A DNA stretch of 8,436 nt from a virus (taxonomy: Duplodnaviria > Heunggongvirae > Uroviricota > Caudoviricetes), in IMG/VR virus record IMGVR_UViG_2548876860_000011, positions 1 through 8,436 of that record. One strand, written 5' to 3'. Shown here piece after piece: positions 2,547 to 2,976 of this stretch (positions within the stretch are counted from its first letter, which is position 1; each line of letters begins with the position of its first letter). The notes beneath the pieces were generated by a model that was not told where the DNA came from, searched no databases, and saw only the letters and a list, made by a program, of their open reading frames with translations. A program made the translations under genes and the position numbers.

Positions 2547-2976
2547 ATGGGGTTCCCTTCACCGGCCAGCGATTACGTTGAAACGAGGATCTCACTCGAT
2601 CAGCATCTTATCAGCCAGCCAGCCAGCCAGCCAGCCAGCCAGCCAGCCAGCCAGCCAGCCAGCAGCGACTTACTTCATGCGGGCATCGCGTTCACATTTC
2701 AGGGAAGGAATATTCCTGGGGGCGCTGCTTGTGGTAGATGCGTCACTTACTGCCTGCGATGGCTCACTGCTGATATGTGCAATCGACGGGGAGTTCAGGA
2801 TCAAGCGATATCGGACTCATCCTCAACACCACCTGATTAATTTGGAGAGCGGGAGAAGGGAGATGCTACCAGTAGATGATGACGGTTACGGTTCTGCTCC
2901 CGCGATATTCGGGGTGATTACTTACATCATTAATGATGCGAGGAACGCGGAGTTTGATGATTGTCCGGTGATGTAA
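2547..2976 (+). pseudogene. UmuD'-like (peptidase S24 / LexA-like C-terminal domain) gene, frameshifted inside a tetranucleotide repeat in this sequence
   Basis: ATG at 2547 is preceded by GGAGG (2533-2537). The N-terminal part MGFPSPASDYVETRISLDQHLIS matches UmuD GFPSPAADYVEQRIDLNQLLIQ, in frame 0. The C-terminal part ATYFMRAS...LLVVDASLTACDGSLLICAIDGEFRIKRY...IFGVITYIIN matches UmuD ATYFVKAS...[29 protein letters not shown]...VFGVVIHVV, but in frame +1. The two frames meet inside the CAGC repeat at 2612-2663. Confidence 0.7.
2612..2666. repeat. tetranucleotide simple-sequence repeat, (CAGC)13 followed by AGC, encoding (QPAS)n
   Basis: Direct count in the sequence: 13 perfect CAGC units at 2612-2663, then AGC at 2664-2666. 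It lies in the linker of the UmuD'-like gene; 12 or 15 units would restore one continuous reading frame. Confidence 0.95.

Follow-up and report, generated by a model that had tools for sequence, protein, structure and literature searches.

A UmuD′ protein that is encoded in processed form, away from umuC, is known from bacteriophage P1 as HumD, for which the primary paper is reportedly McLenigan et al. 1999 (J Bacteriol 181:7005). Here we describe a relative of this gene in a stretch of 8,436 nucleotides of viral DNA (Caudoviricetes; IMG/VR virus record IMGVR_UViG_2548876860_000011, positions 1 to 8,436), referred to throughout as the window. An earlier note, made from the letters alone, had read positions 2547-2976 as a natively pre-processed UmuD′-like gene with no umuC partner. 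Judged by its sequence the gene is humD, a member of the known HumD family and not a new one, and the allele in the window is put out of frame by a tract of CAGC repeats.

The P1 GenBank record states that humD "functionally complements E. coli UmuD′" and annotates a LexA site upstream. Functional substitution for UmuD′ is known only for P1 HumD, from the record note and from PMC7092418; McLenigan et al. 1999 is cited in PMC7092418, PMC4713147 and PMC11541004. Once its reading frame is restored, the window gene shares with P1 HumD a length of 129 amino acids, an MGFPSPA start at the position of UmuD Gly25, and 69.8% identity over 129 amino acids (tblastn against phage genomes, where N15 gp26 reached 66.7%). 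Both genes are phage-borne, have a LexA site or LexA-like sites upstream and lack an adjacent umuC. They differ in setting, P1 being a plasmid prophage and the element studied here an e14-like integrated prophage, and P1 has no coupled 80-amino-acid winged-helix gene. Where P1 encodes LIRHPSATYF with no repeat, the window humD has an expanded (CAGC)n and is out of frame.

E. coli UmuD and UmuD′ (1umu, 1ay9, 8gmt) share with the window gene the S24 fold, 43% identity, the GFPSPA-DYVE arm and the equivalent of Lys97. Unlike E. coli UmuD, humD has no 24-residue N-terminal tail, no Cys-Gly site and no umuC operon; it carries RSHF in place of GDSM, with one residue deleted, and a 10-residue acidic C-terminal extension, NAEFDDCPVM. 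Plasmid UmuD homologues of the mucA/impA/rumA type are also S24 translesion accessory proteins borne on mobile elements, often beside a DinI-like gene; plasmid pUMNK88_K88 has a dinI-like gene, umuD and a Y-family polymerase gene together. Homologues of this type have a cleavable N-terminal tail and sit next to a Y-family polymerase gene, whereas the window humD has neither feature.

Tetranucleotide tracts are familiar from the contingency loci of Haemophilus influenzae and Neisseria, where CAAT, CCAA and AGTC tracts occur in lic, hgp and mod. Tracts of this type are rare in E. coli. As in those loci, the window gene has a perfect 4-nt repeat in the 5′ part of its coding sequence, every third length is in frame, and copy number differs between near-identical strains. 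The known loci are surface or restriction-modification genes, whereas humD encodes an intracellular SOS mutagenesis factor of a prophage. Literature searches returned no paper on this tract, nor on a umuD or humD that is phase-variable or switched by a simple sequence repeat (SSR).

An out-of-frame member of the HumD family

With three CAGC copies, the in-frame reconstruction matched NCBIfam NF051876 ("HumD family translesion DNA polymerase") at 217.6 bits (cutoff 120) over profile positions 1-129 of 129. The 12-copy version scored 206.6 bits against the same cutoff, and the match holds only when the copies are set to a multiple of three. Because the reconstruction scores this highly over all 129 positions, the HumD identity of the out-of-frame (OFF) gene is above chance. 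Pfam Peptidase_S24 matched at 34.3 bits (cutoff 23.3). The UmuD model NF007621 gave 92.2 bits, below its cutoff of 110, and the LexA model TIGR00498 gave 28.8 bits (cutoff 110.95) with the C-terminal domain alone matched. The gene lies outside UmuD proper by score, by the missing tail, by the RSHF loop and by the absence of umuC; it lies outside the LexA repressors, which join a winged-helix DNA-binding domain and a cleavable S24 domain in one chain, by score and by its match to the C-terminal domain alone. A search of 5.8 billion proteins returned 515 HumD homologues, chiefly of 129 amino acids and chiefly named HumD, in Citrobacter, Salmonella, E. coli, Kluyvera and Enterobacter.

Given the full-length match to NF051876 and the identity to P1 HumD, the combination of a UmuD′ made in processed form with the lack of a umuC is the defining trait of a curated family, HumD. 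It is a textbook property that calls for no fresh explanation, and filing the gene correctly averts a false claim of a novel SOS mimic.

The humD frame opens at ATG 2547-2549, which is preceded by GGAGG with a 9-nt spacer. The open reading frame (ORF) begun there, MGFPSPASDYVE, can be aligned to UmuD starting at Gly25, as the earlier note had proposed. In alignments to 1umu and 8gmt_B, residue 2 (Gly) of humD corresponds to the first residue in the crystal chain of UmuD′, which is Gly25 of full-length UmuD; M1-G2 is aligned with C24-G25, and neither an N-terminal tail nor a cleavage site is present. MGFPSP opens all 126 distinct related HumD contexts; 62 of them contain no other in-frame start farther upstream, and in 33 of the 126 an in-frame stop lies within five codons upstream of this start. 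A motif of the GGAGG/GAGG type is found 6-10 nt 5′ of the MGFPSP start at nearly all related loci, and the HumD profile itself begins at M1-G2.

Positions 2547-2976 are not one ORF because (CAGC)13 puts 2664-2976 in the +1 frame. Read in the ATG frame the tract encodes (SQPA)n, 13 copies of it shift the downstream frame by +1, and only 3, 6, 9, 12 or 15 copies join the two halves of humD in frame. The 13-copy product leaves the HumD frame after residue 38: it is composed of the arm, (SQPA)4 and 59 out-of-frame residues, ends at 2840, and is HumD-like in just its first 22-38 residues. The remaining core, ATYFMRASRSHFREG...EFRIKRY...FGVITYIINDARNAEFDDCPVM, ending in FDDCPVM and TAA 2974-2976, is left in the other frame. 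The (CAGC)13 frameshift deprives the window allele of the intact protein-producing frame of the family. This allele is frameshifted, and no UmuD′ mimic is made from it. Treating 2547-2976 as a made protein was therefore mistaken, as the earlier note's own mention of a "repaired (12-repeat) allele" implied.

Two routes around the frameshift were considered and rejected. For +1 ribosomal frameshifting across the repeat, inspection of the sequence by eye found no slippery re-pairing site in AGC-CAG-CCA-GCC. For internal restart in the 3′ frame, at TTG 2578 or ATG 2677, there is no Shine-Dalgarno sequence upstream, and the product would be without the arm.

The in-frame alleles are predicted to take the S24/UmuD′ fold, and not the non-S24 fold that the earlier note had named as a refuting result. 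By sequence the closest solved structure was UmuD′ 1umu (E = 7e-23 with the single sequence, 2.5e-26 with a 48-member profile). An AlphaFold2 (AF2) model of a natural 12-copy in-frame allele had a predicted local distance difference test (pLDDT) score of ~83 in the core and below 50 over residues 1-35, which include the repeat. The best Foldseek matches of this model in the PDB were 1umu, 8gmt and 1ay9 (UmuD′/UmuD), followed by the C-terminal domains of LexA and lambda CI.

UmuD ASGDSM is replaced by ASRSHF in humD, and the Lys of EFRIKRY (codon 2803-2805) is aligned with UmuD Lys97; the loop and a conserved Lys had been noticed earlier. The HumD family has the motif A-[SGA]-x-[ST]-H-[FY]-R-E-G where UmuD has ASGDSMIDGG, with one residue deleted. 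Among 48 family members the position aligned with Ser60 is Ser in 28, Thr in 19 and Ala in 1; the family His is present in 45 of the 48 and the Lys97 equivalent in all. Of the proposed Ser/Lys dyad the Lys could be placed, and the partner depends on the method: in the former active-site loop (Ser/His codons 2692-2697), Ser (2692-2694) falls on UmuD Ser60 by MAFFT and the 48-sequence profile, and His falls there by single-sequence phmmer. In these alignments the canonical G-x-S-M nucleophile motif is lost and the Lys is kept. Because HumD has no cleavage site, catalysis is presumably not required in it.

As had been noted before, the window contains no umuC/dinB-like gene: its longest ORF is 322 amino acids and E. 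coli UmuC gave a best tblastn hit of E = 2.2. This absence holds for the family. We retrieved 160 related loci, of which 148 were HumD-type and 12 were the most distant (<45% identity). A UmuC homologue within 4 kb was found at 0 of the 148 HumD-type loci, while each of the 12 distant loci, from Niastella and others, holds a true UmuD gene that is directly followed by umuC. In E. coli CDF6, whose locus has one mismatch to the window over 771 bases, the chromosomal umuDC lies ~24 kb away, and a host UmuC partner is therefore available in trans.

Length variation of the CAGC tract

Other HumD genes (n = 145; other species and viral contigs) have 0-3 CAGC units at the I-S-Q-P-A-A codons, and no humD allele with four or more copies was found among GTDB species representatives. 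In E. coli the tract is longer and its length varies. Of eight complete E. coli genomes, three carried 11 copies, three carried 14, one carried 9 and one 13; two metagenome contigs with an expanded humD tract carried 8 and 9; and assemblies reached via called proteins carried 5, 6 (ten loci), 10, 11, 12 and 14. Over the 28 loci of this lineage there were nine lengths within 5-14 copies, with the in-frame (ON) state at 6, 9 and 12 and the OFF state at 5, 8, 10, 11, 13 and 14.

All 28 lineage loci showed 0 substitutions across 378 non-repeat humD bases, and their flanks (~1.2 kb) mostly 0-2. Because length differs among loci with no substitution in humD and so few beside it, the CAGC tract is hypermutable, changing orders of magnitude faster than the adjoining DNA. 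Slipped-strand mispairing is the obvious candidate mechanism for these changes. Both 12-copy alleles contain a CAGC-to-CAAC interruption, at a different position in each, as does one 14-copy allele. Compared with three relatives, the reconstructed humD had a ratio of non-synonymous to synonymous substitution rates (dN/dS) of 0.09-0.10; for most of its history, until recently, the gene was therefore under purifying selection.

By sequence, humD has the features of an SSR contingency locus: a 4-nt unit within an ORF, length polymorphism, and both ON and OFF states. The tract is polymorphic in length; that the changes are reversible or of any benefit we infer. What is noteworthy beyond the known family is modest: a hypermutable CAGC tract specific to E. 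coli, and a conserved winged-helix partner gene.

Function or decay of the E. coli gene

We consider it very probable that the locus is a HumD-family gene, carried as cargo by an e14-like E. coli prophage at its right end and held OFF by a slippage-prone CAGC tract. The gene is part of a cluster made up of a dinI-like gene, LexA boxes, orf80-humD and a convergent SRAP (SOS-response-associated peptidase) gene. An in-frame product would be expected to act like P1 HumD, to which its sequence is 70% identical: it would dimerize, join host UmuC and RecA*, and give DNA polymerase V (Pol V) its UmuD′ function without RecA-mediated cleavage, with transcription still under LexA. The tract, in the linker between arm and core, would have grown from 3 copies in relatives to 13 here. 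Slipped-strand mispairing would reset its length far faster than point mutation, which would account for the ON and OFF states seen among lineage members.

Several observations weigh against this explanation. The function is assigned by transfer from P1 HumD at 70% identity, and repeat lengths in assemblies may hold errors or mask mixtures within a culture. OFF alleles seem commoner, with ON in 1 of the 8 complete genomes, which fits decay at least equally well. A 37-amino-acid C-terminal ORF, presumably what gene callers report for OFF alleles, occurs in 253 index blocks against 24 contigs for the 6-copy ON protein, although blocks and contigs are different units and gene calling biases this sampling. 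Truncated humD derivatives exist, for example one of 80 amino acids on 20 contigs (P0123). Finally, AF2 predicts just disorder for residues 1-35 of the 12-copy protein, which bears on the effect of SQPA insertion.

The strongest competitor, which we regard as a real possibility somewhat short of an even chance, is a dead pseudogene: humD would be dispensable in the e14-like lineage, the repeat would drift neutrally, ON alleles would be accidental and the function would be gone. The ON count in complete genomes is no better than the one third in frame by chance, the presumed OFF-type ORF fragments are far more widespread than the ON proteins, and the Prokaryotic Genome Annotation Pipeline (PGAP) annotates the gene as a pseudogene; the truncated derivatives point the same way. 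The dN/dS against relatives argues otherwise, as do the two independent 12-copy alleles, whose CAGC-to-CAAC interruption would stabilize an ON length. A second lesion was found in 0 of the 28 loci, but a lineage with 0 substitutions is too young for this to carry much weight either way.

A genuine contingency locus, in which reversible CAGC slippage toggles a pre-activated UmuD′ mimic, perhaps with orf80 as its partner in a two-piece LexA-like module, is a more tentative idea and in our judgment an unlikely one. With lengths of 5-14 copies, the tract does bring the gene for an E. coli mutagenesis factor into and out of frame, and if the switching were functional it would link phase variation to the supply of mutations. 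Clonal E. coli would then always hold subpopulations differing in SOS mutagenesis or damage tolerance, and an SSR phase-variable mutability factor would be present in a species considered to have few loci of this kind.

The coupled upstream gene orf80

In speaking of a gene with no partner, the earlier note overlooked orf80, which is translationally coupled to humD. The protein is a full-length member of phrog_3893, a family of 79 amino acids (E = 1.3e-36), with ~100 homologues of 79-80 amino acids; no Pfam or NCBIfam domain was found in it, and a winged-helix domain is predicted with a pLDDT of 91. At 54 of the 148 HumD loci, with HumD identities as low as 34% within the Enterobacterales, orf80 either stops 1-2 nt ahead of the humD start codon or shares bases with it in a TAATG overlap. 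Viewed from the other gene, 52 of 80 orf80 loci on viral contigs have a full HumD directly after orf80, and at least 16 of the remaining 28 then carry a diverged protein of 105-108 amino acids. As a widely conserved coupled gene, orf80 may explain the real role of prophage HumD proteins.

The two proteins might together form a two-piece LexA-like or repressor-like module, or a modulator of RecA*, and not primarily a Pol V subunit; we think this improbable. Winged-helix orf80 followed by S24 HumD would, on the predicted folds, reproduce the domain order of LexA, and the neighbors DinI and SRAP are also damage-response proteins. The coupling across the Enterobacterales and the diverged protein that so often replaces HumD after orf80 fit such a module as well. 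However, the HumD genes of P1 and N15 have no orf80, and the P1 protein is nevertheless annotated as able to complement UmuD′. The coupled orf80 is present at no more than 54 of the 148 HumD loci, and the profile scores of HumD, 29 bits for LexA and 92 bits for UmuD, place it much nearer to the latter.

A longer UmuD/LexA-like precursor that starts upstream (2431, TTG 2448 or ATG 2457) and cleaves itself, the MG start being an artefact, is highly improbable: frame 0 is open from 2418 and includes TTG 2448 and ATG 2457, the PGAP pseudogene model ("S24 family peptidase, frameshifted") begins at window 2431 and in L001 covers 2431-2976, and some databases hold versions of 148-167 amino acids (P0003, P0017), but 2302-2544 codes in another frame for orf80, a full-length independent family, the PGAP start probably stems from the Salmonella ORF P0017, a frameshifted orf80 fused to humD, the MGFPSP start is universal in the 126 contexts and shared by the HumD profile, and Met would precede Gly, unlike the Ala or Cys of known S24 sites. 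In LexA, UmuD and MucA the residue before the Gly of the cleavage site is Ala or Cys. The upstream in-frame start with a cleavage site that the earlier note had named as a counter-explanation is accordingly not supported. The PGAP label "frameshifted" is also applied to read-through relatives, one that is translated intact (L005, 4202-4707) and a 9-copy allele that is in frame by copy number (L002, 3202-3731).

The diverged 105-108-amino-acid protein begins (M/V)GFPSPA-DYVE and ends DDDCPV(L/I), without the ATYFMRAS..SH (Ser/His) and K motifs. It was found after orf80 homologues of ~72% identity in the IMG/VR loci L266-L285, for example at 2745-3068 of L274. Judging by its motifs, it could represent a second HumD-like subfamily, one that is non-catalytic.

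The C-terminus of orf80 (RTFQLFNPNGGL; TFQLF) was considered as a relic of the UmuD tail and its clamp-binding motif, which we take to be 14-TFPLF-18. The candidate was rejected: the segment varies among homologues as TFMLF, LWFMF, TFALY and YWILR, the Gln is unconserved, and orf80 has a complete winged-helix domain of its own.

NCBI labels many orf80 homologues "DNA polymerase V" without domain evidence. The present assignments correct this public name, as well as those of humD, "LexA family transcriptional regulator" or "S24 family peptidase, frameshifted".

Regulation and genomic neighborhood

Table 1. Coordinates of humD, its repeat tract and the adjoining features in the window.
Feature	Position	Strand	Description
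DinI-like gene	1985..2227	-	80 amino acids; divergent from orf80-humD; Pfam DinI 73.6 bits
Two LexA-box-like sites	2245..2284	.	CTGGATGGATACACAG 2245-2260; CTGTTTTTTTATCCAG 2269-2284
orf80	2302..2544	+	80 amino acids; first gene of the operon; phrog_3893, predicted winged-helix; stop TAG 2542-2544, 2 nt 5′ of humD ATG
humD Shine-Dalgarno GGAGG	2533..2537	+	within the conserved N-G-G-L codons ending orf80; read from sequence
humD 5′ segment	2547..2611	+	ATG frame; encodes MGFPSPASDYVETRISLDQHLI; matches UmuD′ N-terminal arm from Gly25
ORF truly open from humD ATG, 13-copy allele	2547..2840	+	97 amino acids
(CAGC)13 repeat	2612..2663	+	Tandem Repeats Finder: period 4, 13.0 copies, 100% match
humD 3′ segment	2664..2976	+	+1 frame relative to ATG; S24/UmuD′ core and stop
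SRAP/YedK-like SOS-response-associated peptidase gene	2977..3645	-	222 amino acids; Pfam SRAP 173.3 bits; NCBIfam PRK09951 463.9 bits

The divergent dinI-like gene is separated from orf80-humD by 74 nt. This interval contains two LexA-like sites, each with one mismatch to CTGT-N8-ACAG, and the pair is conserved in two relatives (L006 and L007). The arrangement is general: of 124 distinct HumD operons, 122 had a LexA-like box in the 130 nt upstream, as against 21 of 543 control windows. Because of these boxes humD is probably SOS-induced and not constitutive, while independent of RecA cleavage. The description of the product as constitutively active, made in the earlier note, is at odds with such boxes.

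A DinI homologue occurs within 4 kb at 57 of the 148 HumD loci, usually divergent and 79 or 321 nt upstream. On the other side, the humD stop TAA 2974-2976 abuts the convergent SRAP stop 2977-2979 with no spacer. A terminator-like hairpin and T-run on the + strand, at 2984-3003, falls within the 3′ codons of the SRAP gene. The damage-response cluster is located between the Pin invertase and the icd′ remnant/iraM of the e14-like prophage.

A fragmented HumD-like sequence was seen in CP075030.1 (L013), a Salmonella Abortusequi record labelled as a plasmid. Its positions 3001-4015 hold a HumD-like match of 82% identity in three pieces over ~1 kb, and the pieces adjoin a DinI gene and the chromosomal genes yejM and yejK. 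Either humD is disrupted here, or the record itself is misassembled or mislabelled.

Downstream of the cluster the window encodes, on the minus strand, a 271-amino-acid protein with no family match (4043-4858) and a 322-amino-acid HNH protein (5333-6301) whose N-terminal domain is PtuB-like (Septu; PADLOC PDLC00337, E = 1.9e-23). The two genes occupy the site that presumably corresponds to the position of mcrA in e14 of the K-12 genome, and they may be defense cargo. A ~118-nt direct repeat (3848-3964 and 5019-5136, 99-100% identical) flanks the gene for the 271-amino-acid protein. The repeat holds a sequence like the 3′ end of a tRNA (GGTTCAAATCCTCTC, minus strand), an arrangement like the att-site duplicates of a small inserted islet; an ARAGORN scan found no intact tRNA in the window.

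At the other end of the window (1-1300), upstream of pin, the tail-fiber and tail-fiber-assembly genes near Pin differ in content and orientation between L001 and two other loci (L003 and L004) that are otherwise identical to it. These differences are consistent with inversion of the segment controlled by Pin.

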